DNA of 64,000 bases from Flavobacteriaceae bacterium (GTDB lineage Bacteria; Bacteroidota; Bacteroidia; Flavobacteriales; Flavobacteriaceae). Below the pieces are notes generated by a model that did not search any database, was not told where the DNA came from, and worked only from the letters and a program-made list of their open reading frames with translations. The position numbers and the translations under genes were made by a program. Shown here in pieces: positions 17,941-51,141 of this stretch. Location of the stretch: assembly GCA_040880345.1 (NCBI GenBank), contig JBBDIQ010000034.1, positions 20,566 to 84,565 of the forward strand. The letters run 5' to 3'. The first letter of the stretch is position 1. Each line of letters opens with the position of its first letter.

Positions 17941-18001
17941 GCTACAGATACGCTATACATCCGCTATAAATTTGCTATATATACGTTATAAATATGCTAT
18001 A
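17941..18001 (+). repeat. Six G(C/T)TA(T/C)A hexamers at exact 11-bp period
   Basis: Starts at 17941, 17952, 17963, 17974, 17985 and 17996. Confidence 0.8.
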
Positions 18002-18059
18002 GCTATTGTATATCTTAGCTTTTTGTATTACTTTGGTACTCACTTTAATACTTAAAATT

Positions 18060-18842
18060 ATGGCAAGAATTACAGGACCTTTTAAAATTACGGGTACCAT
18101 TGGTGGTATGAACTTTTATCAGGATGGTGATAAAAACATCGGCAGGATGGCCGGTGGCGGGTTTAATGGCGAAGCTTTCAAGACCAAGGATAGTATGGAG
18201 CGGGTGCGTGAAAATGCTTCTGAATTTGGGCATTGTGCTGCGGTGAAGAGTACGTTTATGCGTGCTTTGCATCCTTATCTTTCTAAATTGAAAGGACGGA
18301 AGTTGCATAGTGCTATGACCAGCATGTTTGTGCAGATCAAGAACTTTGACCCGGTTTCTGCAAGGGGTGTAAGGCGGGTGGCTCCGGGGCTTACTACTAC
18401 TGACGGGCGGAATTTGTTGTTGACGTATTCGTATCCTGAGCGGTTTACTGTTGACTATACTTTAGGGAATCGTTTTAGTGTCGATATGGTTACTCACACT
18501 TGTAGTTGTACTGATTTTGATGTGAGTGGGATTGCTTTTCCGGAATTTGCTACTCATGTGGGCTTGTTATATGGTGTGGTGGTGATGGATTTTGATACTA
18601 TAGAAGCGCATACTTTTTTAGCTGAGGAGTATTATGTCTCTAAAAATGATGCGAACCACTCTATTGTCTTAAACCCTGTGACTCCTCCATCCCCCTTCAC
18701 TGCTTCGCTAGTTACGGAGGACGAAGCTGGAGACGGTGTGCGGATTGCTGTGATGGGTGTGCGGTTTTATCAGGAGGTGAATGGGGTGATGACGAAGTTG
18801 GAGGCTAAGCGTGGGGTTGGGGTTTTGGGAGTTGTTGTTTAA
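18060..18842 (+). CDS. Hypothetical protein of a Bacteroidota family with N-terminal GTIGG-x-NFY and RVRENASEFG motifs
   Basis: ATG at 18060 (MARITGPFKITGTIGGMNFY) preferred over TTG at 18006; function unknown. Confidence 0.75.
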   Translation: MARITGPFKITGTIGGMNFYQDGDKNIGRMAGGGFNGEAFKTKDSMERVRENASEFGHCAAVKSTFMRALHPYLSKLKGRKLHSAMTSMFVQIKNFDPVSARGVRRVAPGLTTTDGRNLLLTYSYPERFTVDYTLGNRFSVDMVTHTCSCTDFDVSGIAFPEFATHVGLLYGVVVMDFDTIEAHTFLAEEYYVSKNDANHSIVLNPVTPPSPFTASLVTEDEAGDGVRIAVMGVRFYQEVNGVMTKLEAKRGVGVLGVVV

Positions 18843-19375
18843 AGTGTTCAGTGGCAGTGTTCAGTGGTCAGTTTGAGAAAGTGCCAAATATTAAAGCACC
18901 AAATTCCAAAGCGCCCATCCTTCGCCACTTTTGGTGACTTCGGTTGGCAAGGCAAATTCCAAAAAATTGTATTAAGTAATAAGACTTATCCTTAAAACGG
19001 TCAAAAGGGTTTCTTGGCTATTGCATGCCGTATGCAGGGAAGGCCATGGATTATCGATTTAGTATGGGCTTTGCTATTCCACAGAGTGACGCAGAGGTTC
19101 CACAGAGGTTCGCAGAGGGGTGGTGGTTGATGTTTAAAGTTCCATGTTCAATTTTAAAAGCACCAAATTCCAATTTGAAAATTCCAAAAAAATGTTGGTC
19201 TTTTTTTTGAATTAAGACCGTAGAGCGGGGTTTCACGCAAAGGGCTGCAAAGGTTCATACGCAAAGAATACGCAAAGGGTCGGGGGGTTGGGGTTATGGT
19301 GGTTGAAATGTTCAATGTTCAAAGTTTTAGTTTTGAGCATGTTTGATGTTCTCGCAAAGACGCTAAGGCGCTAAG
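18843..19375. repeat. Composite cluster of short-period intergenic repeats
   Basis: CAGTG tract (18843-18874), CCAAAT/AAATTCC tracts (18878-18910, about 19157-19190), CCTTCGC..CTTCGG unit (about 18917-18955), CACAGAG x4 (19080-19118), CGCAAAG tracts (about 19232-19278, 19349-19375). Confidence 0.8.
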
Positions 19376-19425
19376 GGTTTACTTCTATTCTGCACTTTAC
19401 TTGTTGTCTTTGGTTAGTATGATGT

Positions 19426-21291
19426 TCATTCATCGCGGGGTAGTTTGTTTTTGAGTTCGATTAGGAGTTTGTCTGCTATTTCTATTAATATGTTTGTTTT
19501 TTGTTTTTGTTTGAAGGGGTAGGTGTGTTGAATGGTTCTGTAGTGGTCGAGGAAGTTGAAGAAGGGGGTTTCCAGTTCCTGGAAGAGGTATTCGTAGCGT
19601 TTTAGATCGGGGTTGGCGTAGAGGCATAGTTGCCAGAGGGCTTTGCTGTGGAGGTTGTTTGGGTAGTAGCTTATGGTGGCGAAGAGGTAAGTTTTGCAGA
19701 AGGTTTGGAAAAACAGGGAGAATAAATTGGCTACGCCACTGTAATTGTCTGTTAGGCGGTCTGCCATTAATAGGAGTTGGTCGAACACCTTAACGGTTTG
19801 TTTATAGTAAAGCTCGAGGTCAGGATAGTATGGTGCGTATGGATGTTCCCAATGGGGTTTGGGGTGGTATGGTGATGTGGTGAAGATGCGGTTTTCTTCT
19901 TTTATTATTTTTTTGAAAAAATCTTGCTGGGCATAGAGCCATTCTTGTATCCAGCTGCGGGTGTGGGCTATAAGGACAAACTCTGCCTTGTTGCCGGTTT
20001 GGGCTTGTAATTTGTTGGTTAGGTCTTTTAGGAGTTGGTTGCTGAAGCCTTTGCCTATGAGCAATAGATAGTAGGTTTGGGTGTTGGCGTGGGTGGTGTG
20101 GTGAAATTGGTAGATTTCTTCGGGGGGGTTGGTTTTTTGGATGGTGGTTGTAACTAGATTGACGAGCCCTTCGATACAATTTTTATTTCGACTATCGTCG
20201 AAATAAAAATCACTCAGGGTGACGGCCCCTCGATACAATTTTCTCTCGACTTTGGTCGAGAGAAAATCACCAGCCGGAGGCGGGCACGCTCGGGTGACGG
20301 CGCTTTGTGTCTCGATACATTTTTCAATGCAGTTATCACTGCTTTGAAAAACACCAGCCTTCGCTAAAGCTTCGGTAGGCAGGCTCGACATGACAGCGCT
20401 TCGATACATTTTGCTTCGTTCCTCAGCAAAACAGTCAGCGTGACAGTGCTTAGATATCATTTTCTTTATCATTTTGAAACGGGTTTCGACCATTTCAAAT
20501 ACGCTTTGTTCTGCTATTTCGAAGGCTTTGTAGTGTTCGCTGCCGAAGAAGCATTCTGCTTCCAGGGAGGTTTTTTTGGCTTTTTCTATGAGGTCAATGA
20601 GGTGGAATGTGTTGCCGGATTTTTTTACGAAATGCTTTTGGATTTGGGGGGCGTATTTAGTGAGGTTGTGTATTCTTTCGTTTAGGGTTTGGTGGGTGTT
20701 TGGGGTGCCTGTATATAAGGATTCAAGATACTCCAAGTTGTGGTTTAGGAGGTTTTCATAGTGTAGCAATACTGCGGCGGAGCAGTCTGCGGCGAGCATG
20801 GGGAATAGTTGTGCCCGAAGGAGCTCATGGTCGTGGTGGAATTGTTGTTTGTAGGCTTTGTATTTTTTGCGGTGTTTCTTTTTGTCTGCGGGGTATAACA
20901 GCAGGTGGTTTTCCAGGTCTTTATTGGTATAAATGAGTGCTGCAGGTTGGCAATAGGCAAAAATGAAGGGATTGCCGATTTTGTATTCCTGGTTGAGTTG
21001 GGTGCTATAAAAAACGTGTACAAAGGTATGATGCCGGTTGTGTAGTTTGGTGACCCATTTTTGCTTTTGGAGGGTGCCGGCTTCGTGTTTGGACTGCAGG
21101 TGGACTATGAGGCGGGCGTTTTCGTGTGTGGTTTGTGGGGTGAAAAATAATTGGACTACCCGGTGGCGGTTGATGAGTTGTGGGAGGAGTTGTTTTAGAT
21201 AGGGGTTATGTAGGTGGGGAAGTTCCTTTTGGTTTCCCTGTTGTAACGAGAATAATTGTTCCGTAGCGGTGTTAGTGTATAAATCTGACAT
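19426..21291 (-). CDS. Two-lobed hypothetical protein, possibly degenerate nucleotidyltransferase/HEPN-like, with an in-frame repeat insertion
   Basis: Uninterrupted frame (621 aa from ATG 21291). Each half has a beta-rich segment (EEIYQFH..YYLLLIG) followed by a helical segment; about 95 aa in the linker are translated DNA repeats. Family call from memory of similar flavobacterial proteins. Confidence 0.55.
   Translation of the reverse strand: MSDLYTNTATEQLFSLQQGNQKELPHLHNPYLKQLLPQLINRHRVVQLFFTPQTTHENARLIVHLQSKHEAGTLQKQKWVTKLHNRHHTFVHVFYSTQLNQEYKIGNPFIFAYCQPAALIYTNKDLENHLLLYPADKKKHRKKYKAYKQQFHHDHELLRAQLFPMLAADCSAAVLLHYENLLNHNLEYLESLYTGTPNTHQTLNERIHNLTKYAPQIQKHFVKKSGNTFHLIDLIEKAKKTSLEAECFFGSEHYKAFEIAEQSVFEMVETRFKMIKKMISKHCHADCFAEERSKMYRSAVMSSLPTEALAKAGVFQSSDNCIEKCIETQSAVTRACPPPAGDFLSTKVERKLYRGAVTLSDFYFDDSRNKNCIEGLVNLVTTTIQKTNPPEEIYQFHHTTHANTQTYYLLLIGKGFSNQLLKDLTNKLQAQTGNKAEFVLIAHTRSWIQEWLYAQQDFFKKIIKEENRIFTTSPYHPKPHWEHPYAPYYPDLELYYKQTVKVFDQLLLMADRLTDNYSGVANLFSLFFQTFCKTYLFATISYYPNNLHSKALWQLCLYANPDLKRYEYLFQELETPFFNFLDHYRTIQHTYPFKQKQKTNILIEIADKLLIELKNKLPRDE
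20160..20450. repeat. Array of four palindromic REP-like units inside a CDS
   Basis: TCGATACA at 20171, 20230, 20312, 20401, each followed by a hairpin and ending in TGAC (20220, 20295, 20391, 20441). Confidence 0.9.
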
Positions 21292-21462
21292 ACAAATTAA
21301 ATTTAAGGTTACACATTGTTCATAATACGCTACATAAAGTTCGTTTATAATCAATAATGCAGTGTATAACGAAACAAATATATACTAATAAGAACAATTT
21401 TAAAAATATTTAATTAATTATTTTTGTTTTTTACGCTATTTACATAGTTTAAAACGATTCAA

Positions 21463-21681
21463 ATGACATCTAAAATGCAAATAAATAGAATTAGAGTTGT
21501 GCTTGCCGAAAAAGATAGGACTAACAAGTGGCTAGCTGAGAAAGTAGGTAAAAATAGAACTACAGTATCAAGGTGGTGTACTAATGATATGCAACCCTCA
21601 TTGGAAACACTAGTAGAGATAGCGGAAGCTTTGGATGTTGATATTAGAGAGCTACTTAATACAACAAAAAGTTCTATTTGA
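21463..21681 (+). CDS. Xre/Cro-family HTH transcriptional regulator
   Basis: NRIRVVLAEK..TNKWLAEKVGKNRTTVSRWCTN..QPSLETL..IA. Confidence 0.92.
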   Translation: MTSKMQINRIRVVLAEKDRTNKWLAEKVGKNRTTVSRWCTNDMQPSLETLVEIAEALDVDIRELLNTTKSSI

Positions 21682-21901
21682 AATCATAAATAAAGATATC
21701 CACTTCTTCTTCACTATAAAATTCACAAAGCATTTGGTAAGGCAAGGCCTTTAAATAGTTGTCTAATTCTTCTTTTTGGTCAAAGAGCTTAAAGTATTGG
21801 CCTTGGTGGTTGTAGAGATATAATTTTTTACTGCCGCCAATTAATAGGGTTTCTATGGTTCTGTTGGCGAAGTGGTGGTAGTGAGTATTTAATGAGACCA
21901 T
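21674..21901 (-). CDS. Small hypothetical protein
   Basis: 75 aa from ATG 21901; 3' end overlaps the Xre gene by 8 bp. Confidence 0.55.
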   Translation of the reverse strand: MVSLNTHYHHFANRTIETLLIGGSKKLYLYNHQGQYFKLFDQKEELDNYLKALPYQMLCEFYSEEEVDIFIYDFK

Positions 21902-22032
21902 ATTACAAGTTTTCAAAGTTTAGATAAAAATAACCTTCAATTGAGTTAGCAATAAGTAAAAATGTAGACTTAGTATCTATCGTTCTTTTATATATTTGCT
22001 CAGAGTAATTAATTACAGATTCCATAATTTGT

Positions 22033-22073
22033 TAATTTAATGTTACAAATGTAACATTAAATTATTACATTTG
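22033..22073 (+). promoter_or_regulatory. Perfect 15-bp inverted repeat abutting a -7 box
   Basis: TAATTTAATGTTACA-AA-TGTAACATTAAATTA (22033-22064), then TACATTTG (22066-22073), 10 nt before ATG 22084. Confidence 0.7.
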
Positions 22074-22083
22074 AAAGTTATTC

Positions 22084-22263
22084 ATGAAGATTAACACCGA
22101 AAAACTATTAACCGTTTCAAACTATTCAAAACTTAAAAATCTAAGTCGACAACACGTTTATAGGCTTATAAATAACAATGAGCTTACACTCGTCAAGATT
22201 GATGGAATTAGCTTTATTTATATGGATGAGAAGGCTGTAGATTTTGTCAAGAAGAGAGAATAA
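22084..22263 (+). CDS. 59-aa putative DNA-binding protein (excisionase/MerR-like HTH), not in the ORF track
   Basis: MKINTEKLLTVSNYSKLKNLSRQHVYRLINNNELTLVKIDGISFIYMDEKAVDFVKKRE; LTV..Y.....SRQ.VY.LI..L pattern. Confidence 0.7.
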   Translation: MKINTEKLLTVSNYSKLKNLSRQHVYRLINNNELTLVKIDGISFIYMDEKAVDFVKKRE

Positions 22264-22375
22264 TTTTAGAATATAATGGTTTATATCTTGTTGAAATATA
22301 GTTTATAATTTAAAATTATTTGTATCATTTTGTTTTAGAAATACTTTAATTTTAAAAAGCACATTACAAAGAAAT

Positions 22376-23740
22376 ATGGCGGAATTTAAGAGCAAAAAAA
22401 TAGAGAAAATTATTGATGAAATCATTGATCAGTATGCTTATGCTGACACAACTGATAGACCCTGGATTATCGGGTTTAGTGGTGGCAAAGATTCTACTGT
22501 TTTACTAACATTAGTTTGGATCGCACTTCAAAGAATTAGAGAAAGAAATCCTTATCCTTATCAATTAAGAAGACCTGTTCATGTGGTTTGTAATGACACT
22601 ATGGTTGAAAATCCAATTATAGCGTCTTATGTTGAAGATGTTTTAACTAAAATTGATACAGAAGCAAGAGAACAAAATCTTCCCATTTTTGTTAAAAAGA
22701 CAACTCCAAAACTTGAAGAATCCTTTTGGATCAATGTAATTGGTAAAGGATACCCGGTGCCTAATAATACTTTTAGGTGGTGTACTGATAGATTGAAAAT
22801 AAAACCAACATCAGACTTTTTGTTAGAAAAAATTGATGAAAAAGGAGAAGCTATTGTTCTTTTAGGCACTCGTTATGAAGAGAGCGCAACAAGAGAACGC
22901 TCAATGAAAAAGCACGAAATTGATGGGAAAAGACTGTCTCGACACACAACTAATATCAATACTTATGTGTATGCTCCAATAAAAGAATTAATGCTTGAGG
23001 AAGTGTGGTACATTATTAATGCTATACCATCACCTTGGAAGTTTGATAATTCTATATTGTTTCAAATTTATTCTGATGCCAGTGCAGATGATTATGAATG
23101 CCCCACAGTCGTCACCAACAAAGAACACTCATCTTGTGGACAAAGTAGATTTGGCTGCTGGACGTGTACAGTAGTTAAAAAAGACAAATCAATGTCAGCT
23201 TTAATCGACAATGGTCAAAATTGGATGATGCCCTTATTAAAATTTCGTAACGATCTGGTTGACAACAGAAACTTAAGTGAAAACAGAATGGCCACCAGAA
23301 GAAATGGAATGCCTGCTGTAACAGAAGATGGGCATAAACAAGGTAATTATTCACCAGAATATCGCGCAAGAATGTTGAAAGAGCTTTTAGAAATTCAAAA
23401 AGACTTGCAAGTTGAACGGCCACATATAAATTTAATTACGAATCAAGAATTAATAGCCATTCAAGTTACTTGGAATCGAGATATGATTTTTGATCATAAT
23501 GTTGGAGATATTTATAAAAAAATATTCAAAAAAGATATTAGTACAAGCAACATCAAAGCACTTGATGACACCGAACGTAGAATTTTGAAAGACATTTGTA
23601 GTGAAGACGCTGAATATTATCACCTCATTGATAATTTAATCACGCTCCAAGAAAGTAAAACCTTGATGCTTTCAAAATATGGATTGCATAATGATGTTGA
23701 AAATAGAATTGAAAACTTTGTCAAAGAGAATCAACTATGA
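22376..23740 (+). CDS. dndC: DNA phosphorothioation sulfurtransferase DndC
   Basis: PAPS-reductase-like IGFSGGKDS, RWCTDRLKI, SRFGCWTCT; upstream of dndD. Confidence 0.93.
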   Translation: MAEFKSKKIEKIIDEIIDQYAYADTTDRPWIIGFSGGKDSTVLLTLVWIALQRIRERNPYPYQLRRPVHVVCNDTMVENPIIASYVEDVLTKIDTEAREQNLPIFVKKTTPKLEESFWINVIGKGYPVPNNTFRWCTDRLKIKPTSDFLLEKIDEKGEAIVLLGTRYEESATRERSMKKHEIDGKRLSRHTTNINTYVYAPIKELMLEEVWYIINAIPSPWKFDNSILFQIYSDASADDYECPTVVTNKEHSSCGQSRFGCWTCTVVKKDKSMSALIDNGQNWMMPLLKFRNDLVDNRNLSENRMATRRNGMPAVTEDGHKQGNYSPEYRARMLKELLEIQKDLQVERPHINLITNQELIAIQVTWNRDMIFDHNVGDIYKKIFKKDISTSNIKALDDTERRILKDICSEDAEYYHLIDNLITLQESKTLMLSKYGLHNDVENRIENFVKENQL

Positions 23741-25842
23741 AAATAAGCAGAGTACAATTTAATAATTTTAGGATTTACAGAGGAAGTAATGAAATATCAT
23801 TTTCTTCAACTGATTCGAAAAACATAAGTCTTATTGCAGGAAAAAATGGCTTTGGCAAAACCACTTTTTTAACTTCACTTATATGGGCATTTTATGGAAA
23901 GCTCATGGGCCAAGTTGAAGAAAAGTATAAAAAGGATATTAAGACTGCCGGGGGCTATGATAATTATGTAACTTCTCTTTTAAATAATAACGTAAAATGG
24001 GAATTTGAAAACGGTAAAAAAGCCACGCCTTTGGTTTCTGTAGAAATAGAATTAAAGGATTTATTAATTCCCACCATACCTTGTAGGACTGTAACTGTAA
24101 AAAGGTCATTCGATTTAAGAACTAACGAAGAAAAATTAAGTATTTTAATAGACGGTCTAGAGAATGAGTTGACCAAAGAAGTTGGTTATGAAGTTTTTAT
24201 AAATGACTTTATTCTGCCAAGAGAAATTGCTAAATTCTTCTTTTTTGATGCGGAGAAAATAGTTTCACTAGCCGAGGCCAAATCAAAATCTGAATTAAGA
24301 AGCTTAAGTAAAGCTTACTCTGAGGTGCTTGGAATCAAAAAATATGAGGAATTAAAAAGCAATCTTGAAGGGCTTTTAATTAAACTAAGAAGACGCGGTG
24401 TAAAGGAGGTTGAGAAGTCTAAATTAGACGAACTCATTGAACAAGTTAACAATGACCAAAAGCAAATTGAAAATAATCGTGAAAATCAAGAAAGTCTAGA
24501 TTTACAAATTGCCCTATTAAAAACGAAAAGTGACAACCTTCAAGAAAAGTTAATAAGAGAAGGCAACTCAATTACCCTTGAAGAGTTAAAGGATTTGAAG
24601 AACTCACGAGAAACCCTAAAATCTGAATCCAAAATAATTAAGAACAAGCTTAAAAAGCTTTTAGATATAATGCCATTTGTGATTGCCGGCAAAAAGCTAA
24701 CTGAATTATACAACCAAATGGCTTTAGAAAGCAGTTCAACTTCTGGAAAATCAGATTCAGAATTAATTCAAAATGAAATCAATGAGTTTTCAAATAGAGT
24801 ATTAAAAGACGCAAAGAAACTTTTTGAAGATCAGAAAACAATTGTAAGTATTGAAAAGTTACTGAATAAAAGTAAAAGTTCAATTCACGTTGAAAAAAAC
24901 AAAACTAAGGTCAGTAAAACTAAAGTACTATTGGATTTTAATGAAGAACAAGTAAGAGAATTTCAAGCCATTGTTGCGAATATCAAAACGTCTTATTTGT
25001 CTCAATTTAATGCCATAGTTCAAGAAGAAAAAAACAACAGGGTACTTTTGAGCAGAACGATCAATAAAATCAAACAAGCGGAAGCAAGAAAAGGAAACCA
25101 AATTGCAAAAGAATACCGGGAAGAAAAAGACAGGACAGACTCTGAGATTTTTAATTTAACAGGTTTAAAAAATAACCTAATTGAAAAATTAGGAGGATTG
25201 CTTGTAAAAGCAGCAACAAATAAAAAAGTACTTTCTGAATATGAGAAAAATTTCAATTTAGTTGAAACAGATAAAAAGAAATATGAAGTCACAGAAAAAC
25301 TGCTTAAGAAAATCAATGAGTTAATTCAAAAAATCAAACAAGAGAAAAAATATGCTTTACAAAAATCAATTTCACTTGGCTTAAGAAACTTGATGCATAA
25401 GGAAAATTTTGTGTCTAACGTGCGAGTTAACATCCAGGAGGATATTATGGATATTGATTTGTTAGATGAACGTGGAAATATTATTGATAAAGACAGTCTC
25501 TCTAAAGGGGAGCAGCAGCTTTATGCAACAGCATTATTAAAAGCGCTTGTTGATGAATCAGGAATTAGTTTTCCTGTGTTTATTGACAGCCCGCTACAGA
25601 AGTTCGATAAACACCATTCAAAAAACATTTTAAAGGAGTTCTACCCTTCAATCTCTGAGCAAGTAGTATTGTTTCCTTTATTAGAAAAAGAGCTCTCAGA
25701 AGATGAGTATGAGCTGTTAAAGAAGAATTTAAACACTTCTTATTTAATTATAAATAATGCACAAGGCTCCACATTTAAAAAAGTAGCTGACAACAAATTA
25801 TTTCAAGAATTTAAAAAGACAAGCGATGTTTACGCATATTAG
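23737..25842 (+). CDS. dndD: DNA sulfur modification protein DndD (SMC-like ABC ATPase)
   Basis: Walker A GKNGFGKTT, FFFFDAEKI, coiled coil, LSKGE signature, FIDSP Walker B. Confidence 0.92.
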   Translation: MKISRVQFNNFRIYRGSNEISFSSTDSKNISLIAGKNGFGKTTFLTSLIWAFYGKLMGQVEEKYKKDIKTAGGYDNYVTSLLNNNVKWEFENGKKATPLVSVEIELKDLLIPTIPCRTVTVKRSFDLRTNEEKLSILIDGLENELTKEVGYEVFINDFILPREIAKFFFFDAEKIVSLAEAKSKSELRSLSKAYSEVLGIKKYEELKSNLEGLLIKLRRRGVKEVEKSKLDELIEQVNNDQKQIENNRENQESLDLQIALLKTKSDNLQEKLIREGNSITLEELKDLKNSRETLKSESKIIKNKLKKLLDIMPFVIAGKKLTELYNQMALESSSTSGKSDSELIQNEINEFSNRVLKDAKKLFEDQKTIVSIEKLLNKSKSSIHVEKNKTKVSKTKVLLDFNEEQVREFQAIVANIKTSYLSQFNAIVQEEKNNRVLLSRTINKIKQAEARKGNQIAKEYREEKDRTDSEIFNLTGLKNNLIEKLGGLLVKAATNKKVLSEYEKNFNLVETDKKKYEVTEKLLKKINELIQKIKQEKKYALQKSISLGLRNLMHKENFVSNVRVNIQEDIMDIDLLDERGNIIDKDSLSKGEQQLYATALLKALVDESGISFPVFIDSPLQKFDKHHSKNILKEFYPSISEQVVLFPLLEKELSEDEYELLKKNLNTSYLIINNAQGSTFKKVADNKLFQEFKKTSDVYAY

Positions 25843-26221
25843 AACTAGTAAAGAGAATAAAGAGGTGGTTTCTAATTTAACAAGAAAACTAAACCTAGGA
25901 ACAGAAAATATCGTAGCAAGAATTGCCCTTACATATTCGCTTTCTCAAGACAGAAAACTAGATTTAATCGCGATTGAAAACTCAAGTGGTAAAGAATATT
26001 CAAAGAGTGTGTTATTTGGTAATTATGTAGATTATTATGTTGGTTTAGTTGCTGTGCATTATGGTCTTTATATCACCGACAAAGACCTGCCAAAATACAT
26101 CAAAATGCACATTGATGATGGGCTACAGCTTTTGGATGAAGAAGTGTCCTCAAACTCTAATTTGGATGGGTTTGATTTTTTGGTTGAGAAAATTGAGATA
26201 GGTATACAATCGATAACTTAA
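25826..26221 (+). CDS. dndE: DNA sulfur modification protein DndE
   Basis: 131 aa, ENIVARIALTYSL, GKEY, HIDDGL; overlaps the dndD stop. Confidence 0.88.
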   Translation: MFTHIRTSKENKEVVSNLTRKLNLGTENIVARIALTYSLSQDRKLDLIAIENSSGKEYSKSVLFGNYVDYYVGLVAVHYGLYITDKDLPKYIKMHIDDGLQLLDEEVSSNSNLDGFDFLVEKIEIGIQSIT

Positions 26222-26223
26222 AA

Positions 26224-29049
26224 ATGCATGAAAAACTTCTTAACGAAAGTCAAGCAGCAATTAAGCTTGGTATTACTAAAGAACTACTATATTCTTATGT
26301 TAGAACTGGAGTTAATGGAAGTAAACTGAAAGCAATATCAAGTAAAAGGGAAATTAAATTTCTTGAATCAGAATTAGATAAATTCGAAACTTTTTTAAAA
26401 GGTAAATGGGTAACAAATGCTAAAGAAAAAAGACCTTCAATACCTAAATTCATAAAGGAGTTTTTAAAAGTTGAGTCAAATGGACAATGTGCTAGGTGTT
26501 TTTCAGGACATCGTCTAGATGATGCTCATATAATTCCTTGGTCAAAATCATTTTCACATTTTCATCATAATTTAATTAGGCTATGTACAGATTGTCACGT
26601 GAAATATGATGATGGAATAATTTCAGAGCAAGAAATCAATGATATTAAGAGGGGATTAATTGAAAAGCTGAAAAAATCCCTTTTAATTGAAGATAATTTA
26701 TTTACAGATTCACTTCATTCAATTCCTAATCCTGATTTGAATTTTGTTGGTAGGGAAGCTTATATAACTAATATTGAGGCCACAATAAAGGGTGAAAGAA
26801 TATTATGTGTCACAGGTCCAGGTGGTATTGGAAAAACAGAGTTGTTAATTAAATCATTGGAAAAACATAAACAATTAGTAAAATGGTTTAAAACAGAAGG
26901 ACATAATTCAATACAAGATTTAAAGCGTGAAATTTTAATTGAATTTAATTCTAGCTCCTTTTCAGAATTGTATTCCTTTTTAGACGAATTGGGTTTGATT
27001 TTAGTATTTGATGGGCTAGAGAATTTAATTAATAATGATAAAGATAAAACGCTTGATTTTATAGGGGATTTATTTAGATATACTTCAAAAGTTAGATTAA
27101 TTATAACAACCCAAGTTAATATTGAAGATTACTCATTTAAAACTAAAAGTATTAAGGTTAAAGGGTTAACTAAAGCTGAGTCCAGTTTACTTTTAAAAAG
27201 TGCTTTACCAGAATTTAAATTGGAAGATTTAGATTGGGTCAATAAATTTTCAAATGGTCATGTCCTAACAATAAAACTGTTAATTGGTTTAATTAGATTT
27301 TACCAAGATTCTCAGAAAGTAAAGAATAAATTAAAAGAAAAAGGGGTTGACTTTATCTCTTCTCCCTCGAGAATACAGCAAAATATTAAATCATCTCTTA
27401 ATCTTTGTTTGAGGATAAGCTATGAGGCTCTAAATGATTCAGAACAATATATTTTAGTTCTTTTGACAAATTTCCCAGGAGGCGTTAAAGAGTATTTTCT
27501 TGATAACTTTAAAAAAGATACTTTTTTTGAAGATGTTAATATTGATGATTTTGATCGTATAGTAGCAAGATTAAACCAATTTAATTTAATTGATAAGGAA
27601 TTTGACCCATTGAATCAAAGTAGATTATTCTTGATTAATCCAATCAGACAGTTTGTAATGTCTGAGATTAAGAGAAAATCATTAAAAACTTGGCATAGAT
27701 TAAGAATTATTGCATTTGAAAATTTAATGATGGAAACATTGGCTATTTATAGCCATAATGTTCAAACAGAAAGATGGGAATATGCAATTTTAAGATACGA
27801 GGTAGAACTTACGAACTATATTTATTCAATTAAATGTTCAATTCATTCTGCATATTGTGAGAAGTGTATAAAACATAGTGATAAGAAGGAATATTTGAGA
27901 ATTATTACAGGATTTGCAGGAGGGTTATACAAATACTTATTTACAAGAGGTCATTATTTATATGGATTAAAGATTAATGAAGAAGGAGCGAAAGCTCATA
28001 TGGAATTAGGTGAGTATGATTTAGCATTGGAAGATTTGACAATGTTAGCTCAACTCTATATTAGAAATGATGATATGAAAAACGCTCAAAGGATTCTTGA
28101 GCAAATGAAACATTGTAGCTTGAAAATAAATGATTCCTATAAATTATTTTACATTTATCTAGTTGAAGGACAAATTATTAAAAAAACTCAGCCTGAGAAC
28201 TCTATAAATTTATTTTTTAGAGCGTTGGAATTGTTATCTATCTCATCATATGATACTGACTTTAAAAATTCAAACACAGCTCTTTTAAATGCTGAAATAG
28301 GAAGGATTTACGAAACTTGTTATGGAGATTTTGAAACAGCACTTGAGTATTATACAAAGGCTTCTAATATTTATAATGGCATTAAAGATTATTCAAATTT
28401 GTACTCTTGCTTTTATCATATTGGTAACTGCTATTCCAATAAATGCGATTTTAAATTGTCTCTTAAATATTACAGAAAAAGTTTGATGGGATTTATGAGG
28501 ACTGGTCAAAAACAATATATTGGAAATGCTTTGTCAGAAATAGCTCGTTTGAGAGTAGACTACCCAATATTAGATTATAGTTTCATTGATAAAAACATAA
28601 TTAATTCTGGATTAATGGATATTCAAGAAGAAATTAAATTATCATTAAAAACTAATCCAAATTTAGAACAGTATCATTTAAATTCAGGTCTTTCAAAAAA
28701 TCAAATTTATAAGTTATGGTCTATTATTAAACTTGCAAGCTTTACTAGCCATTTGGTATTAATAAATGATTGGTGTAATGGACTTTTGAATAGTATTCAA
28801 AATGATAAAGATATAAGATTTTCATACCCTTGGTTTTTCTTAAACATAGCACTGCTCGTAAGCCAAATTGAAAAAAAGGAAAGTATAGATGAGAACATAA
28901 AGTCTATTAAACAACTTTGCTATTTACATGGGGGAGAAGTAGAGCATGATATTTTTGACCCATTTAAATGGTTGGCTTTATGGCTAGATTACAAAGAAAT
29001 AGAAAAGACAACTAGGGGTCAATTGTTTGCAGAGATTGAAATTTTATAA
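26224..29049 (+). CDS. HTH-HNH endonuclease-NB-ARC (STAND) NTPase-TPR protein
   Basis: N-terminal HTH; CARC..AHIIPW....N...LCTDCH (HNH); GPGGIGKT, LVFDGLE, IITTQ, GHVL, SYEAL; C-terminal TPR-like helices. Confidence 0.8.
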   Translation: MHEKLLNESQAAIKLGITKELLYSYVRTGVNGSKLKAISSKREIKFLESELDKFETFLKGKWVTNAKEKRPSIPKFIKEFLKVESNGQCARCFSGHRLDDAHIIPWSKSFSHFHHNLIRLCTDCHVKYDDGIISEQEINDIKRGLIEKLKKSLLIEDNLFTDSLHSIPNPDLNFVGREAYITNIEATIKGERILCVTGPGGIGKTELLIKSLEKHKQLVKWFKTEGHNSIQDLKREILIEFNSSSFSELYSFLDELGLILVFDGLENLINNDKDKTLDFIGDLFRYTSKVRLIITTQVNIEDYSFKTKSIKVKGLTKAESSLLLKSALPEFKLEDLDWVNKFSNGHVLTIKLLIGLIRFYQDSQKVKNKLKEKGVDFISSPSRIQQNIKSSLNLCLRISYEALNDSEQYILVLLTNFPGGVKEYFLDNFKKDTFFEDVNIDDFDRIVARLNQFNLIDKEFDPLNQSRLFLINPIRQFVMSEIKRKSLKTWHRLRIIAFENLMMETLAIYSHNVQTERWEYAILRYEVELTNYIYSIKCSIHSAYCEKCIKHSDKKEYLRIITGFAGGLYKYLFTRGHYLYGLKINEEGAKAHMELGEYDLALEDLTMLAQLYIRNDDMKNAQRILEQMKHCSLKINDSYKLFYIYLVEGQIIKKTQPENSINLFFRALELLSISSYDTDFKNSNTALLNAEIGRIYETCYGDFETALEYYTKASNIYNGIKDYSNLYSCFYHIGNCYSNKCDFKLSLKYYRKSLMGFMRTGQKQYIGNALSEIARLRVDYPILDYSFIDKNIINSGLMDIQEEIKLSLKTNPNLEQYHLNSGLSKNQIYKLWSIIKLASFTSHLVLINDWCNGLLNSIQNDKDIRFSYPWFFLNIALLVSQIEKKESIDENIKSIKQLCYLHGGEVEHDIFDPFKWLALWLDYKEIEKTTRGQLFAEIEIL

Positions 29050-29051
29050 TA

Positions 29052-30812
29052 TTATTTTTTTGGCTTAAATGTTTTTACATCCTTTAAAAACTCAAAAATT
29101 GTCTTAATACCATGTTTTGTAGAGGGGATTTTCAAACTCCCTTTCGGAAAAGATTCTGAATTACTAGGTTTGGTAACTTTGTCTATTTTCTTCTTTAAAG
29201 CTTCTAGTTCTTTTTTCGTATCATTTAATGAAATACCTTTATCAAAAAGATAATATCTCAAGAGACGAATAAATGCTGAAACATATTTTGAGGAAATTAA
29301 GAAAGTACTTGTATCCTTTTTCCAATCATATTTAAACACCTGCCTCACATAATTAAAGTATTGGTCTAAAATACTTTTAGACTTCCTACATAATTCTAAA
29401 GGGTGCTTATCAAAATGTGTTCTTTTTTTTCCAAAAATATTCTCAAATTCTTTTTCAGTTATACTTTTTTTATTTGTTTTTAGGCCTTTTATAAAAGGTA
29501 TTAAATCATTATCAACAATTGTAGTTATTGGAATACTTGGAAGATTAAATTTGTTTTTTCTATTGAGAGAATTTGTTAAAAAAACGTTCCCTAGAGGTTT
29601 AGATTCAGATGAATTATTACATAATAGAATTATTTTCCCAGCAAGAGCTTCACTATCTTTTTCACCCAAAACATCGTATTTTATTAGATAGATTAAGTTG
29701 TTTTTAACTCTTGCTTGATTTGAGTTTATTTCAACAAACACTTTTGCAGCATTTTTAGTTATATCTTCAATTTTAGTTGTTTTAAATTTAATTGCAGTTG
29801 CTAAAATTTCAGATTTTTCAAGTGTTAGTTGGCTAATATTATTTTTTGTGTATCCATAAAGTCTATGTTGTCCATCTATGATATCAATAGAACTGAATTT
29901 TTTAGGGATTGATAATTTAGTAATACCGCCATTAGTCTCTTCAGTACATTCATTGCTTAATACTAGGGTAATAGTATTTGGAAAGAGCTTTCTTTTATCA
30001 TCATCAATAAAATTTTTAGAAATATTCTCAATCTTACTTTCTATCAATAATCTTTGATAGTTGTGTTTGGTATTTTCTTCTTCTAAAATAAATGGGATAC
30101 CCTCATATCTAGAAACCCTTGCAATTCTTAGTAGTTGGTCAACTGTAAATTTTAGTAAATAAACATCAGCTTTTACTTTATTCCCTGTAATGTATTTATT
30201 ATCCGCTTTTAAGAAGTCTAATTTTATTGATTCATCACTTTCACCATATTCCTCAGGTGTAAACTCCATTGATGATAGAAATTCATTTTTTGAATGGTGA
30301 CCAATTAAATTGGAAAGTTGTCTTAAATATTCAAGTGTATTAGGTTTAATAATGTATAAGCTTTTTTGTATATCTGGATAATCAGGAAAATCAGCTCTAG
30401 TTAGTTCTTCGTTTTGTATTTTAGAATTGGTTCCGAAATAAACATATTTAAAATTTTCTACCTCTTTAAAGTCTTCTAATTTATTAGCTGGTATATTAAA
30501 AAGTTTAAACTTCTCTTCTAATGAGAGATGGCTTGAGTTGATTAAAAGGTTTGAGTTTCTATTAAATTTTTTGATTTTTGATTTGAATCCACTATTTTCT
30601 GACGTGTATTCAAGTAATAAGCAAGTTTTATTTATTAGTAAAACCCCATCTATTTCTAAGTGATTACCTCTAGATTGAGTAGGGTCTAATAGTGACAATT
30701 CTATTTGACCAGGGCTAGGATAATAATCCTCAAACCCTAAATCATTCTTTATAAAAGATTGAAACCAATCCTCAAGTTTTTTACCAGTTAAATCTTCAAA
30801 AGGTTTTGCCAT
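29052..30812 (-). CDS. DGQHR-domain (DndB/PbeA-like) protein with N-terminal nuclease-like region
   Basis: YQR, FPNTI, IIDGQHRLYG, FVEINSNQ motifs; N-terminal EIDGVL..LLEY. Confidence 0.82.
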   Translation of the reverse strand: MAKPFEDLTGKKLEDWFQSFIKNDLGFEDYYPSPGQIELSLLDPTQSRGNHLEIDGVLLINKTCLLLEYTSENSGFKSKIKKFNRNSNLLINSSHLSLEEKFKLFNIPANKLEDFKEVENFKYVYFGTNSKIQNEELTRADFPDYPDIQKSLYIIKPNTLEYLRQLSNLIGHHSKNEFLSSMEFTPEEYGESDESIKLDFLKADNKYITGNKVKADVYLLKFTVDQLLRIARVSRYEGIPFILEEENTKHNYQRLLIESKIENISKNFIDDDKRKLFPNTITLVLSNECTEETNGGITKLSIPKKFSSIDIIDGQHRLYGYTKNNISQLTLEKSEILATAIKFKTTKIEDITKNAAKVFVEINSNQARVKNNLIYLIKYDVLGEKDSEALAGKIILLCNNSSESKPLGNVFLTNSLNRKNKFNLPSIPITTIVDNDLIPFIKGLKTNKKSITEKEFENIFGKKRTHFDKHPLELCRKSKSILDQYFNYVRQVFKYDWKKDTSTFLISSKYVSAFIRLLRYYLFDKGISLNDTKKELEALKKKIDKVTKPSNSESFPKGSLKIPSTKHGIKTIFEFLKDVKTFKPKK

Positions 30813-30826
30813 TTTAAGTAGTTATT

Positions 30827-31282
30827 TTAATTATCTAAGGAATCCAATAGGAAGTTGATATAATCATTTGGATGATTAAAATAGTCTGGATTAGAACTAA
30901 TTTTTCCGTGTATTATCTCAAAACCACCATTAGCAAACTCTTCAATTGTTTTGTTTAATTCTGTGACATCTTGCAAAATTTCATGGCCTTTTTTAGCTAC
31001 AGCAAAAAGTATTAATGATTGAAAAATCCTTTCTCCATTATTATTAATGGTTGTATACTTAAAAGTCTCTTTTTTTAAATCACCTTCTAATGGTTTACTG
31101 ACTCCTTCAATAAATCCTAAAGTTGCAGCCCAAGCAAATGGCATCCATTGCTGCTTAAAATATTTAGTTTTATCTTGCTCTTTAACTCCTTCACTTGTAG
31201 CAAATTTTGCTACGATATTCTCATAGTCAAACATTTCCATTTTTGGCGAAATGTTTTGTATATCCATGTATATTGTTGACAT
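30827..31282 (-). CDS. DndE-like / phosphorothioation-associated small protein
   Basis: 151 aa, FAWAATLGF and IEEFANGGFEII motifs; overlaps the ATPase stop. Confidence 0.62.
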   Translation of the reverse strand: MSTIYMDIQNISPKMEMFDYENIVAKFATSEGVKEQDKTKYFKQQWMPFAWAATLGFIEGVSKPLEGDLKKETFKYTTINNNGERIFQSLILFAVAKKGHEILQDVTELNKTIEEFANGGFEIIHGKISSNPDYFNHPNDYINFLLDSLDN

Positions 31283-33390
31283 TACTTTATAGGATTTATT
31301 ATTGTGTAACTATTTATTATAGAAGACTCACCTGGTGTGTCAGATGACTTCTCAATTGTATGAATAGATTTAGTAAACTCTTCATTTTTATATGCATCAA
31401 TTTCAAGGTGTATATCTTTTAGAATAACTAATCCTTGAGTAAAATTTTCAGATACAGATTTAATAAATGGCTTTGTTATTGTATCATCAAAATTTGAAGT
31501 AGGAGCATCTACTATAAAAGGATAACTTTCACCTTTATATTCATTAGATAACTTTAATACAGAGCTTATTAGTGACATTTTCGCTAATGTTTCTTGAGCT
31601 CCATGACCAGGATTTGGATTGCCATCTTTATCAACAAATGAGATGGAATAATCATCTTTACTGATTTTAACATATAGTACTATTATATCATTGTCTTTTG
31701 ACTGTTGGATAATACTTTTCTGAATTTTGTTGGCTTCATTTTCAATTTTCTCAATGAGATCATTTTTTTCTATATCAACTTTTTTATCAATGATTTGCTT
31801 GATTTCATACAAATAATTTAAAGACTTCTTCTCAGGTATTTCATTAACATCTATTTCTTCAAGACCAACTAATTCCTCAAACTTTTTATTTAATCCTCTT
31901 ATTTCAGACTCTAGTCCTCTAACCTGCTTATCATAAAACTCTTTTTGACTTCTTTTAGTTGCTAGGTCACCTTTTACTCTTTGAATTGCACTAGTGATAG
32001 TCTTTGGGTCTAATTCCAGTATTTGATAGCCTTTTTCTTTTATTAAATCTTCAATCTTCTCTTTTGTCTTTTTTAGTGCTTCATTAATACTAGCAATTTC
32101 ACCTTCTTTTTCCTTATTTCTTAAAATATGATTTTTTAAATCCCGCTTTATATCTGAAGTTGATGTTTTTATTGGAGAAATGTTTTTCACAATGTCCATA
32201 ACTTTCTCATTCAAGTCCTCAACTTCGTCTGAAAGAAGATTCTTAACTTTTTTATTTTCATCAAGATGCGTTTCGATAATTTTGATTAAATCAGGATTGT
32301 CTTTTTCTGTAGTTCCACATATCAAACATTTTCTCTCTTTAACCATTCTTCTAATTAAATGGTCTCCAGGCACTCCTAACTCTAATTGCTCTCTACTTAC
32401 AGCGATTTCATTTTGTCGCCAAGAAATAAATTTCCTCAACTCAACCTCTGCCTTATCTAGCAGAGGATGACTTTTAGCAATTATCCATTTATTGATAAAT
32501 AATTGCTTACTCTCCTTATCTATTGTTTCTAAATTGTCAAATGCTCTTTTTCTTTGGTATTCTAATCTATTCTCCTCTTCTTTTAAATCAGGAAAACCAG
32601 CAACAAAACTTAATTTTTCAGTATATTCCTTTTCCTTTTCCTCAAGCTTTTCAATATCAATTTTGGCCTGTTTAAATTTATCTTTTTTGGCTGTTAAATC
32701 TCTTTGTTTTGATTCTAAATCATAGTTTAATTGTTGAGACTTTTTTTGGTCTCTAGCATTCGCTTGTAGTTTATTTCTATATTTTCTATCAGTTTTTTCA
32801 ATTATATCATCAATTATTCTTGACATTCTTGAAAATAGAGGTAGATAGGATATTTGTTTAACTGCTTGTTCAAGAGTATTTGGGTTTGAGAAGTCAATTA
32901 ATTGATTAAGGGTCTCACCCTTAAACAACAAATACTTTCTTAATTTTTCTGGAAAAAGTTCGTCTAGTTTTGATTCAACTTCCCTTCTATCCAAAATCAC
33001 TTTTGAATTACCAGTTCTTGGTTCTTCAAAACTTATCGAAGTATTGATTTCTTGGATTTGACAGTCATTATTTTTAATTGTATATACATTTTCTTTCTTA
33101 ATCCTATATACAATGCTATCCTCTTCAACAAAAATAGTAACACTAGATTCTATCTGGTTTATATTTTTTTGTAAGGATTCAAACTCAAACTTTTTATTTA
33201 AAATAAAATCTTCATCAATATTGTCTTTGAAAGACATGCTATCAAGTAAAACCCACTGAAACGCTTCATATAAACTTGTTTTTCCTGTTCCAATTTTACC
33301 AGAAACAATATTAAGTCCATTTTTAAAATTGAAGACTTGATTGCCATAATAAGACTTGAAATTATTTAGTTCAACTTTCTGTATTATCAT
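31282..33390 (-). CDS. SMC/DndD-like AAA ATPase with central CxxC zinc hook
   Basis: NFKSY, Walker A GKIGTGKTS, LLFKGE, CLICG in mid coiled coil, FIVDAP Walker B/D-loop. Confidence 0.85.
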   Translation of the reverse strand: MIIQKVELNNFKSYYGNQVFNFKNGLNIVSGKIGTGKTSLYEAFQWVLLDSMSFKDNIDEDFILNKKFEFESLQKNINQIESSVTIFVEEDSIVYRIKKENVYTIKNNDCQIQEINTSISFEEPRTGNSKVILDRREVESKLDELFPEKLRKYLLFKGETLNQLIDFSNPNTLEQAVKQISYLPLFSRMSRIIDDIIEKTDRKYRNKLQANARDQKKSQQLNYDLESKQRDLTAKKDKFKQAKIDIEKLEEKEKEYTEKLSFVAGFPDLKEEENRLEYQRKRAFDNLETIDKESKQLFINKWIIAKSHPLLDKAEVELRKFISWRQNEIAVSREQLELGVPGDHLIRRMVKERKCLICGTTEKDNPDLIKIIETHLDENKKVKNLLSDEVEDLNEKVMDIVKNISPIKTSTSDIKRDLKNHILRNKEKEGEIASINEALKKTKEKIEDLIKEKGYQILELDPKTITSAIQRVKGDLATKRSQKEFYDKQVRGLESEIRGLNKKFEELVGLEEIDVNEIPEKKSLNYLYEIKQIIDKKVDIEKNDLIEKIENEANKIQKSIIQQSKDNDIIVLYVKISKDDYSISFVDKDGNPNPGHGAQETLAKMSLISSVLKLSNEYKGESYPFIVDAPTSNFDDTITKPFIKSVSENFTQGLVILKDIHLEIDAYKNEEFTKSIHTIEKSSDTPGESSIINSYTIINPIK

Positions 33391-33401
33391 AACTTAATTT
33401 T

Positions 33402-33599
33402 TTAACTAAATAAATCAACTATATTATTAGTTTGAGCTTTAATATTGGGGTCTATATTTTCTCCTCTATCTTCTTTAACAGCTAAATCTATAACTCTGTT
33501 AAGAATATCATTTAGCACTTTTTTGTCTAATTCATTCTCTTTATTATCTTCTATTAAACTTTTAAAAGAATCAAATATTTTTTTCTGATATGTTGGCAT
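33402..33599 (-). CDS. 65-aa hypothetical protein in the defence operon
   Basis: Tight packing (4 and 11 nt gaps) between the helicase and ATPase genes. Confidence 0.7.
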   Translation of the reverse strand: MPTYQKKIFDSFKSLIEDNKENELDKKVLNDILNRVIDLAVKEDRGENIDPNIKAQTNNIVDLFS

Positions 33600-33603
33600 A
33601 ATT

Positions 33604-35892: not shown

Positions 35893-36066
35893 TTGCTAGT
35901 AAAAATAGGGATTTTTAAACAATTCAAAACTTTAGTTTTTTCAAATTTAAAAAAGCAGTAGGTAATTACTTTACGGAATTCCTCATTCCCTGAAAAAACT
36001 TTCCTCCAAGTCACTTCCATAAAAAAGGCTGTATAGTTCTTTCAGGACGGCTCAGCTCAGGAGATG

Positions 36067-50427: not shown

Positions 50428-50654
50428 TTTTCTATTTCAAAAGGAGCAACCGCGCCAAAATTCGAGACCGCAAATATAACAAGAACTCTTTTAAGGGGAA
50501 AAATATAATTGATGATAGGCTTATTGAATAATGAATAACGAACTGCAGAATATCGAATAACGAAGTGGGGTTTCTGAAAAATTAATGTTTAAACCCTATA
50601 GGAATCAGGATTTTATACCGCCAAAATTTTAAATCAACTCATTGCTTAGTCATT

Positions 50655-50865
50655 CTTTGTGGTTCTCTGTGCTTCTTTGAGGAACTTTGCGCTATAGTTG
50701 TACCACAGAGTTACACAGAGACTTCACAGAGTTACACAGAGGTTTTTGTTAGTACTGAACACTGAAGACTCTTTACCCTTTGTGGTTCTCTGTGCTTCTT
50801 TGAGCAGCTTAGTGCTATAGCTGTGCCGCAAAGTTTCACAAAGATTCCACAAAGGTTCGCAAAGG
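50655..50865. repeat. Two palindromic CACAGAG-family elements (4 inverted units, short spacer, 4 direct units)
   Basis: Elements at 50655-50742 and 50778-50865; direct units at 50704, 50714, 50725, 50735. Confidence 0.85.
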
Positions 50866-50895
50866 ACTTCGTACTTCTAATTTTGTACTTCTAAC

Positions 50896-51081: not shown

Positions 51082-51141
51082 AGTTAATTGTTTTAAAGGT
51101 TACTGTTTTATTGATAATCTGAACTGAAAAAAAGGTTTTAC

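Follow-up and report, generated by a model that had tools for sequence, protein, structure and literature searches.

How does DNA built of hairpins come to be read as protein, and how does the reading frame survive while further copies are added? This question is raised by a gene in a 64,000-nucleotide (nt) stretch of DNA from a Flavobacteriaceae bacterium (assembly GCA_040880345.1, contig JBBDIQ010000034.1, positions 20,566 to 84,565 of the forward strand), which is referred to here as the window. A continuous open reading frame (ORF) on its minus strand (19426-21291) encodes a conserved hypothetical protein of 621 amino acids (aa), counted from the ATG, with two similar lobes, and between the lobes lies a hairpin array of four abutting units (20160-20444, plus strand). 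In-frame palindromes in proteins are already known, from Rickettsia palindromic elements (RPEs) and from intragenic repetitive extragenic palindromes (REPs); the unusual point in the present case is a four-unit array of about 95 aa that stems from an otherwise gene-avoiding family and shows living polymorphism. Our analysis makes it likely that the units are CGTC-tagged hairpin repeats, resembling the motifs that accompany the Ssn nucleases (Ssn-related motifs, SRMs), which have accreted stepwise and are tolerated in the linker of the host protein.

Architecture and translation of the hairpin array

The four palindromic units are delimited by TGAC anchors at 20160, 20220, 20295, 20391 and 20441, with spacings of 60, 75, 96 and 50 nt, coordinates that agree exactly with those given in an earlier reading of the bare sequence (the original prediction). 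All units have plus orientation, and on that strand each runs P1-5' (4-5 nt), TCGATACA, hairpin P2, CAC(T)C, P1-3' and TGAC. The CGTCA-tagged strand is the coding strand of the host gene, on which the order is 5'-(C/T)GTCA, P1, GAG(T)G, P2 hairpin, TGTATCGA and P1'-3'. The design therefore comprises an unpaired CGTC-type tag, an outer stem (P1), an inner stem (P2) and a pair of unpaired strands that do not vary (TGTATCGA and GAGTG), and the sequences of the stems vary freely provided that pairing is kept. The outer stem had escaped the original prediction.

Unit 1 (20160-20223) comprises P1 at 20167-20170/20216-20219, TCGATACA at 20171-20178, P2 at 20179-20210, CACTC at 20211-20215 and TGAC at 20220-20223. 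In unit 2 (20220-20298), P1 lies at 20226-20229/20292-20294, TCGATACA at 20230-20237 and P2 at 20238-20267; the corresponding positions in unit 3 (20295-20394) are 20308-20311/20387-20390, 20312-20319 and 20320-20351. Unit 4 (20391-20444) has P1 at 20397-20400/20437-20440, TCGATACA at 20401-20408, P2 at 20409-20415/20425-20431 and TGAC at 20441-20444. The P2 hairpins had been described as perfect or near-perfect palindromes, and this they are: the stem is 14 base pairs (bp) long and 100% complementary in unit 1, 13 bp and 100% complementary in unit 2, 14 bp and 93% complementary (13/14) in unit 3, and 7 bp with all seven positions paired in unit 4 (TTTTGCT/AGCAAAA). P2 begins with (A/T)TTTT and finishes with AAAA(A/T) in every unit, the remainder being unit-specific. 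The outer stem compensates from unit to unit, with CCCT/AGGG, CCC/GGG, TGTC/GACA and CGCT/AGCG in units 1 to 4, respectively, and the tag reads CGTCA in the first two units and TGTCA in the last two.

Units 2 and 3 carry extra segments relative to the family consensus, each placed between CAC and CTC, so that the nesting of other repeats within two of the units, as originally proposed, reflects real insertions. The segment in unit 2, CAGCCGGAGGCGGGCACG, is 18 nt long (20271-20288). That in unit 3 spans 29 nt (20355-20383) and is a member of a small repeat family of another kind, with the motif CCTTCGC..CTTCGG..GGCA, a further copy of which is found at 18919.

The array stands out clearly from the rest of the window. 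The 64 kb contain TCGATACA at four positions, 20171, 20230, 20312 and 20401, all within the array, and the 18-mer GCCCTTCGATACAATTTT has three matches with up to three mismatches where 0.11 are expected. Hairpins whose stem reaches 12 bp or more number six in the whole window, three of them in the array, compared to about 0.3 in a shuffled window, and as single-stranded DNA the array has a folding z-score of -7.5. Furthermore, a covariance model (R1) that was built solely from 32 copies of other genera matched the 64 kb at four places only, namely at 20163-20224 (unit 1; 47.4 bits, E = 2.7e-9), 20393-20445 (unit 4; 35.8 bits, E = 2e-6), 20229-20273 (unit 2; 23.1 bits, E = 0.0027, the match being broken off by the 18-nt insert) and 20311-20357 (unit 3; 20.8 bits, E = 0.01). 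A putative fifth unit at 20441-20465 did not hold up. Comparison with orthologues identifies 20445-20465 as the ancestral flank of the linker, which encodes ..RFKMIKKMISKH (..KKMISKH) on the minus strand, and in the orthologous loci L001-L004 the coding sequence RF.ELK.. runs on at this position.

We next considered the protein that results. Judged by its sequence the host gene is real. Among Bacteroidota 57 homologues were found, mostly of 540-550 aa and none annotated, and the protein matched no family in Pfam, NCBIfam or PADLOC. The N-lobe is encoded by approximately nt 21291-20446 and the C-lobe by approximately nt 20159-19429. Of the three possible frames through the array (306 nt) a single one is free of stops, the one that joins both lobes, and 0.3% of shuffled sequences are open in a given frame. 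As had been stated in the original prediction, translation yields units of 20, 25 and 32 aa that end in (A/L)V, and adds about 95 aa with six cysteines to the linker. The reading frame of unit 4 differs from that of units 1-3 (CIEG.., LYRGA.., MYRSA..), so that the array is repetitive at the level of DNA and not of protein. In an AlphaFold (AF2) model made with 48 homologues (mean predicted local distance difference test score, pLDDT, 80.5), each lobe is predicted to consist of a beta-sheet followed by a helical bundle, and the repeat-encoded residues 303-366 have a pLDDT below 50; the inter-lobe linker is thus predicted to be disordered. A fold search with the model returned weak matches only, the best being the nucleotidyltransferase (NTase) LinB (E = 0.036), along with HEPN domains at TM values of about 0.6-0.67 on the target. 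Because these matches are weak, our reading of the host protein as two NTase-plus-HEPN-like modules is tentative.

Alleles of the linker and the wider repeat family

Is the array a fixed part of this gene? Alignment showed that distant homologues have a linker of about 25 aa without palindromes. In the four closest orthologues (62-63% identity) the linkers differ in length and contain different palindromic repeats at the same site, with the general design GTCA, stem, GAG.., ..CGAAG, stem; an example is CGTCATTGCGAGTGAAACGAAGCAAC, found in L002-L004, and the L002 linker contains GTCACTGAGCGGAGCCGAAGTG within CCCCTCTC..GAGAGGGG. The L001 linker holds a single unit of the window family, GTCACCCCGAGTGATTTTCTCGATACGATAGTCAAGAGAAAATTGTATCGAGGGGC, which is also matched by model R1. 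In orientation and frame this unit agrees with unit 2, to which it is 82% identical, the flanking coding DNA being 79-84% identical. The ancestral linker in the orthologues contains GTCAAC.

Alleles closer to that of the window were read from short assembler contigs of metagenomes. A sediment metagenome run (X1) is the source of the window and holds 99% of its words, and relatives are present in the hot-spring metagenomes X3 and X4. One related allele on X3/X4 contigs lacks precisely unit 1, with 20160-20219 (60 nt) missing at a 5-nt TGACG microhomology, and its unit 2 (20220-20270) is identical at 51 of 51 positions, the adjoining coding flank being 86% identical and the 18-nt insert absent. 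Another related allele has a unit-1-like copy, then the 13 nt AGGGCTTTTATAT, and continues from 20459 onward, so that units 2-4 are missing and the net difference is 222 nt. Both of these well-defined indels (60 and 222 nt) are unit-precise and multiples of three. In metagenome scans for close relatives of the host gene, the first returned none and the second only the P0004 locus again. The four-unit array is polymorphic among strains, and the array site tolerates differing numbers and kinds of units across lineages, always in frame. The comparison of orthologues and alleles, in which related strains and orthologues carry no unit, one unit or other units at the same site, together with the unit-precise in-frame alleles, the one-unit linker of L001 and the palindrome-free distant homologues, supports the stepwise, frame-preserving accretion that had been proposed. 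A second insertion hot spot was observed in the C-lobe at about 20078-20095, where the X3/X4 relatives and the P0003 orthologue carry repeat-derived extra sequence, e.g. THPREGGDLVNQLHPVNQ; in P0003 the insertion amounts to 18 aa.

We then determined how widely the units occur. The pattern TCGATACAWTTTT N10-40 AAAAHCACY, run on contigs from one genome per species, detected at least 152 copies in at least 120 stretches, almost all of them from Flavobacteriales (Flavobacterium, Chryseobacterium, Maribacter, Lutibacter, Aquimarina, Kordia and others). Model R1 raised this to at least 283 copies (229 + 54) in 124 loci. Two features lie outside the search pattern and are conserved nonetheless: the TGAC(G/A) tag, each position of which is kept in 124-136 of 146 copies (its variable base being G 84 times and A 49 times), and the P1 stem, in which 4.04 of 5 positions are complementary, compared to 2.90 with shuffled partners, through combinations such as GTTC/GAAC, CTTC/GAAG, ATTC/GAAT and TCCC/GGGA, among others. 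Across the family, units are 57-100 nt long, with a P1 of 4-5 bp, a P2 of 7-18 bp and unpaired strands of 8 and 5 nt between them, and other repeats are often nested in them. The units of the window are members of this Flavobacteriales hairpin family.

Only one copy of the 152, and a dubious one, was intragenic (in an ORF of at least 100 aa), and a second census of 264 copies revealed no convincing intragenic copy outside the host gene family. An ORF of 429 codons over elements in locus L073 proved to be a masked run of N; this run (approximately 3050-3940 of a Lutibacter maritimus contig) is flanked by element copies. With respect to neighbouring genes, 28 elements were located in convergent, 64 in co-directional and 7 in divergent gaps. 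Arrays occur with alternating orientation (e.g. L063, period about 143 nt) or head-to-tail (e.g. L091, period 89 nt). In L091 (850-1900) adjacent 89-nt units have homologous spacers yet distinct near-perfect P2 palindromes; both P2 arms seem to change together, and hairpin-templated correction may be the cause.

Pairing within the family was strongly constrained. In 145 distinct copies 91.8% of cells were paired compared to 74.2% after shuffling, and double changes were found in all 12 pairs, in 281 cells versus 77 in shuffled data; none of 500 shuffles equalled this, and the signal collapsed in slid controls. Such covariation in both stems speaks for the possibility that the elements act as RNA, as hairpins that stabilise or process messenger RNA, and that the array is a cis-regulatory device, for example for pausing or cleavage between the lobes. 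Orientation points the same way: in co-directional gaps the transcript carries the CGTCA strand in 44 cases and the other strand in 20 (p = 0.0037), and the host gene agrees with the majority. However, G-U pairs are almost absent, with about 11 one-sided changes versus 279 double changes outside the tag pair, which suggests that the constraint acts on DNA, or on both strands, and not on one RNA strand. Moreover, a search with the 4227 Rfam models gave no relevant match in the window, nor over the elements in 18 other loci; close relatives differ freely in how many and which units they carry, contrary to what tuned regulation would require; and distant homologues of the host protein do without hairpins. 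We therefore regard a role as RNA as unlikely. Altogether, these data show that the family is normally intergenic, constrained in structure at the DNA level, and organised in arrays that resemble bacterial interspersed mosaic elements (BIMEs).

A second explanation is that the array arose purely locally, by tandem duplication and divergence through slippage in the linker, with no outside input. The shared TGACG boundaries and the unit-precise deletions with 5-nt microhomology are consistent with such a process, and the head-to-tail arrays with homologous spacers in L091 resemble tandem duplications. Against this, the four units are only 59-78% identical to each other in pairwise comparisons, and both their P1 and P2 stems differ; unit 4 is in another frame, hence there is no repeat at the protein level; unit 2 is unchanged in a strain whose coding flank has diverged by 14%; and the units match a model made from intergenic copies of other genera. 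Closer relatives of units 3 and 4 were, furthermore, present on other X1 contigs of equal depth (about 14): an insert-free copy resembling unit 3, followed by an inverted partner, and copies resembling unit 4 on two contigs. Hence other members of the family exist in the same genome or community, and copies outside the array, as originally expected, were seen both here and in the 124 loci. A purely local origin seems to us improbable, about as much so as a role in RNA.

A GIY-YIG nuclease gene beside the elements

If units enter the linker from outside, which enzyme might move them? We clustered the 244 ORFs that lie within 300 nt of elements, and the sole recurrent family was a GIY-YIG protein, present at eight loci in different genera. 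In L091, for example, a 97-aa ORF between two element arrays encodes a GIY-YIG protein (PF01541, E = 1.2e-17). Elements flanked 7 of 12 GIY-YIG genes on both sides within 150 nt, compared to 4 of 754 other ORFs (Fisher p = 8.5e-12). The flanked GIY-YIG genes, which were seen in other genomes than that of the window, encode proteins of about 97 aa with PF01541 as their sole domain. The original prediction had named GIY-YIG and the REP-associated tyrosine transposase (RAYT) as candidate mobilisers, and the first of these is the only gene family that is recurrently flanked.

The second candidate would make the units classical REPs or REPINs, mobilised by a RAYT (an IS200/IS605-type Y1 transposase) and not by a GIY-YIG enzyme. 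In keeping with this, the elements are extragenic palindromes with frequent inverted doublets and alternating BIME-like arrays, and they avoid divergent promoter regions (7/99). The unpaired tag, however, is CGTCA and not GTAG; no transposase cluster was found among the 244 nearby ORFs, in a survey that included no dedicated Y1_Tnp profile scan; and CGTC-tagged REPs have been described as having no associated tyrosine transposase (PMC3733652). In our estimation mobilisation by a RAYT is very unlikely.

We next asked how the flavobacterial GIY-YIG protein relates to characterised nucleases. The protein family is very large (5957 matches, many on very short contigs), and neither NCBIfam nor PADLOC gave it a name. 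A tblastn search of PLSDB returned alphaproteobacterial homologues with 47-50% identity and two mislabelled N. gonorrhoeae chromosomes. The gonococcal ORF that was matched is surrounded by eight copies of the repeat NTS, which conform to the published SRM pattern, and is therefore ssnA as defined by Chenal et al. (PMC11893778). The flavobacterial protein aligned to gonococcal SsnA with 47 bits and 41% identity, and the two have in common a C-terminal KKW.RA.K..LI that is absent from YazA (UPF0213) of B. subtilis; SsnA and YazA aligned with 28 bits. Nearest among solved structures were members of UPF0213. By these sequence comparisons the flavobacterial GIY-YIG protein is homologous to SsnA. 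In a Sphingomonas plasmid (L127, 1340-1500) we also observed an alphaproteobacterial GIY-YIG homologue (47% identity) preceded by an inverted element pair with the loop GAGCGAAGTCGAAG; the loop core is that of short Bacteroidota elements, and the C-terminus of the GIY-YIG protein extends into such a repeat.

These observations suggest a model for the growth of the array. The hairpin family would be mobile, and by analogy with the Ssn system an Ssn-like nuclease of the window organism would act on its units. Units would be added singly, beside the CGTCA boundary of an existing unit or beside the GTCAAC of the ancestral linker. At such a site exposed single-stranded DNA would be nicked by a nuclease of the Ssn type, and repair after the nick would copy in another unit; units 2-4 sit exactly between the end of the unit 1 tag and the ancestral flank. 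Only those indels that retain a single stop-free frame would survive selection, and the protein would passively gain a disordered, cysteine-containing spacer of about 95 aa. The linker peptide itself is probably without function.

A bolder version of this model is that Flavobacteriales harbour a large, undescribed nuclease-plus-hairpin branch, in which the GIY-YIG protein of about 97 aa reads the bipartite structure via TGTATCGA, GAGTG and CGTCA and not via the sequence of the stems, hairpin-templated repair takes place, and units are still being written in natural populations, one by one, into a protein linker. A nick at the tag and subsequent repair from the hairpin template would keep diverging palindromes perfect and would add new units beside old ones. 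We find this version conceivable but doubtful.

Several observations weigh against stepwise accretion of Ssn/SRM-like repeats as we have set it out. No GIY-YIG gene is present within the 64-kb window. The flavobacterial GIY-YIG protein is as similar to YazA (57 bits) as it is to SsnA, so that it is no more than a candidate member of the Ssn clade (cd10448). The published SRM pattern, HGTCWYN(0-2)YYVSBRHN(0-5)WNVSBRGN(0-2)RNCYNB, which describes a single hairpin of 20-50 nt, had no match in the window and two in the 832 kb of loci, neither of them on an element; as a positive control, it recovered the eight copies around gonococcal ssnA. In addition, units may in part have been gained and lost by slippage or recombination between direct repeats, with no nuclease involved. 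Finally, the X1 contigs break inside unit 4 and overlap by only 27 nt, so that the precise number of units depends on the original assembly.

This last point, together with a word depth that climbs 4- to 7-fold across 20308-20433 in the source sample, is also what could be said for the view that the array, or its length, is an assembly artefact caused by repeats. But difference-free contigs cover units 1-4 in two samples (19426-20430 and 20404-21291 in X1; 20037-20224 and 20197-20433 in the second sample), the single open frame connects the two lobes, and orthologues carry inserts at the same site, which leaves an artefact hardly credible. Self-cleaving ribozymes (hammerhead-like, with CUGA..GA / GAA, or hairpin; the core does not fit by inspection and Rfam gave nothing at E <= 1), integron attC arrays or CRISPR (on inspection no cassettes or spacers, variable stems and no R'/R'' consensus), Flavo-1 RNA (a different motif, merely nearby in some loci) and intrinsic terminators (the T-run belongs to the stem and does not follow it) were all rejected.

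Genomic setting and relation to known systems

The host gene is accompanied by a divergent gene for an XRE-type helix-turn-helix (HTH) protein (21463-21681, plus strand; Pfam HTH_3, E = 4.7e-12), and this pair is retained in all orthologous loci (L001-L004). An island of low GC content (27-33%) adjoins the host gene at 21300-36000 and contains a phosphorothioation-type defence set: DndC (22376-23740), a DndD/PbeC-like protein (23737-25842), an HNH-STAND-TPR protein (26224-29049), a DndB/DpdB-like protein (29052-30812), PbeC (31282-33390) and PbeA (33604-35892). The cargo beyond the pair differs in every one of L001-L004, and includes Shedu SduA_C, a type I restriction-modification system plus ThsB/TIR, Dcm plus a MutH-like protein, and Vsr. 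The pair of host gene and XRE-HTH gene seems to act as the anchor of a hot spot for defence islands.

The window belongs to an uncultured member of the Flavobacteriales; named relatives of its Prc peptidase are from Flavobacteriaceae or Flavobacterium and reach at most 51% identity. Other features of the window were noted in passing. Strand asymmetry is pronounced at 18000-21300 (GC skew +0.26 to +0.38, AT skew -0.15 to -0.26); since this region covers the minus-strand host gene as well as a plus-strand ORF of 278 aa (18006-18842), the skew is independent of the coding strand. Short tandem repeats of 7-11 nt (AGTGTTC, TTCCACAGAGG, CGCAAAG/CGCTAAGG and CACAGAGTTA), a class distinct from the hairpin units, fill the intergenic regions 18843-19400, 50526-51830 and 55075-55163, and the ORF at 4695-6083 has an internal tandem repeat (5058-5597) with periods of 75/150 nt, 3.6-6.7 copies and 68-72% matches.

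The locus provides a concrete and still polymorphic example, in a free-living bacterium, of how selfish hairpin DNA turns into protein sequence, and its empty, partly filled and differently filled alleles form a natural comparison series. It also led to the definition of a widespread flavobacterial repeat family that falls outside Rfam and the published SRM pattern, and would carry the pairing of Ssn nuclease and hairpin over to Bacteroidota, in an architecture that is distinct and based on structure. Should the nucleases cut at these elements, the toolbox for single-stranded DNA would gain new specificities, and a testable model would be at hand for the multiplication of CGTC-type repeats, for which no transposase is known.

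Among known systems, Flavo-1 RNA (RF01705) is likewise a structured intergenic repeat of flavobacteria with an inner hairpin based on A/T pairs, but it is unlike the window family in both sequence and structure, and its model fails to match the units of the window. Flavo-1 motifs were seen within about 150 nt of elements in the same intergenic regions (L028, 667-750; L050, 1996-2075 and 6665-6753). The REP/BIME and REPIN-RAYT systems of Proteobacteria share with the window family the extragenic palindromes, the alternating mosaic arrays and a single-copy enzyme gene bordered by repeats of its own; they differ in having a GTAG tag and a Y1 transposase where the window family has CGTCA and a GIY-YIG neighbour.

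RPEs were reportedly recognised by Ogata and colleagues in 2000 as palindromic DNA lying in frame in protein-coding genes. Like them, the array is in-frame palindromic DNA that is translated at a tolerant site. However, RPEs sit in many unrelated genes, whereas none of about 260 copies of the window family is intragenic outside the host gene family; the window family, furthermore, belongs to free-living Flavobacteriales and forms a tandem array of four units in one linker. The original suggestion of a flavobacterial analogue of protein-coding palindromes thus stands for the translated, in-frame units of this gene, but does not extend to the family, which is not habitually coding. RPE-4 and RPE-6 have been equated with CGTC-tagged REPs (PMC3733652).

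CGTC-tagged REPs were described by Di Nocera et al. (2013) and include dRS3 of Neisseria, RPE-4/-6 of Rickettsia and an example from Bacteroidetes (Gramella forsetii); some are intragenic, with clusters encoding 43-82 aa (PMC3733652). They share with the window family the terminal unpaired CGTC/TGTC tag, head-to-head dimers, clusters, the lack of association with a tyrosine transposase, the occurrence of intragenic copies, and hosts among Bacteroidetes. They consist, however, of a single stem of 8-9 bp that starts with A/T pairs, a loop of 4-5 nt and a CCA tail, whereas the units of the window embed a second, variable hairpin in the loop and have further repeats nested inside.

Together with the CGTC-tagged REPs, the motifs of the Ssn/SRM system come nearest to the window family among those described. 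Chenal et al. (2025) described Ssn proteins as small GIY-YIG nucleases, flanked by NTS/SRM hairpins, that bind single-stranded DNA and cut a few nt upstream, and noted that the layout of the gene and its flanking hairpins resembles an insertion sequence (PMC11893778). In both systems the hairpins are oriented, high in copy number, clustered and rarely intragenic, and have a conserved unpaired upstream tag of the HGTCW type, which in the window family takes the form of an unpaired 5' (C/T)GTCA and is present in all four units; in both, a small single-domain GIY-YIG gene (about 95 aa; below 150 aa) has repeats on either side. The systems differ in that window-family units are bipartite and 57-100 nt long, with two stems split by the invariant TGTATCGA and GAGTG, and in that recognition of NTS requires the sequence of the stem, whereas the stems of the window family are free. 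Bacteroidota are not discussed in the main text of that report (PMC11893778), and here four units are translated. By analogy in unit architecture and flanked genes, the family is best read as belonging, functionally, with the CGTC-tagged REPs and the Ssn-related motifs.

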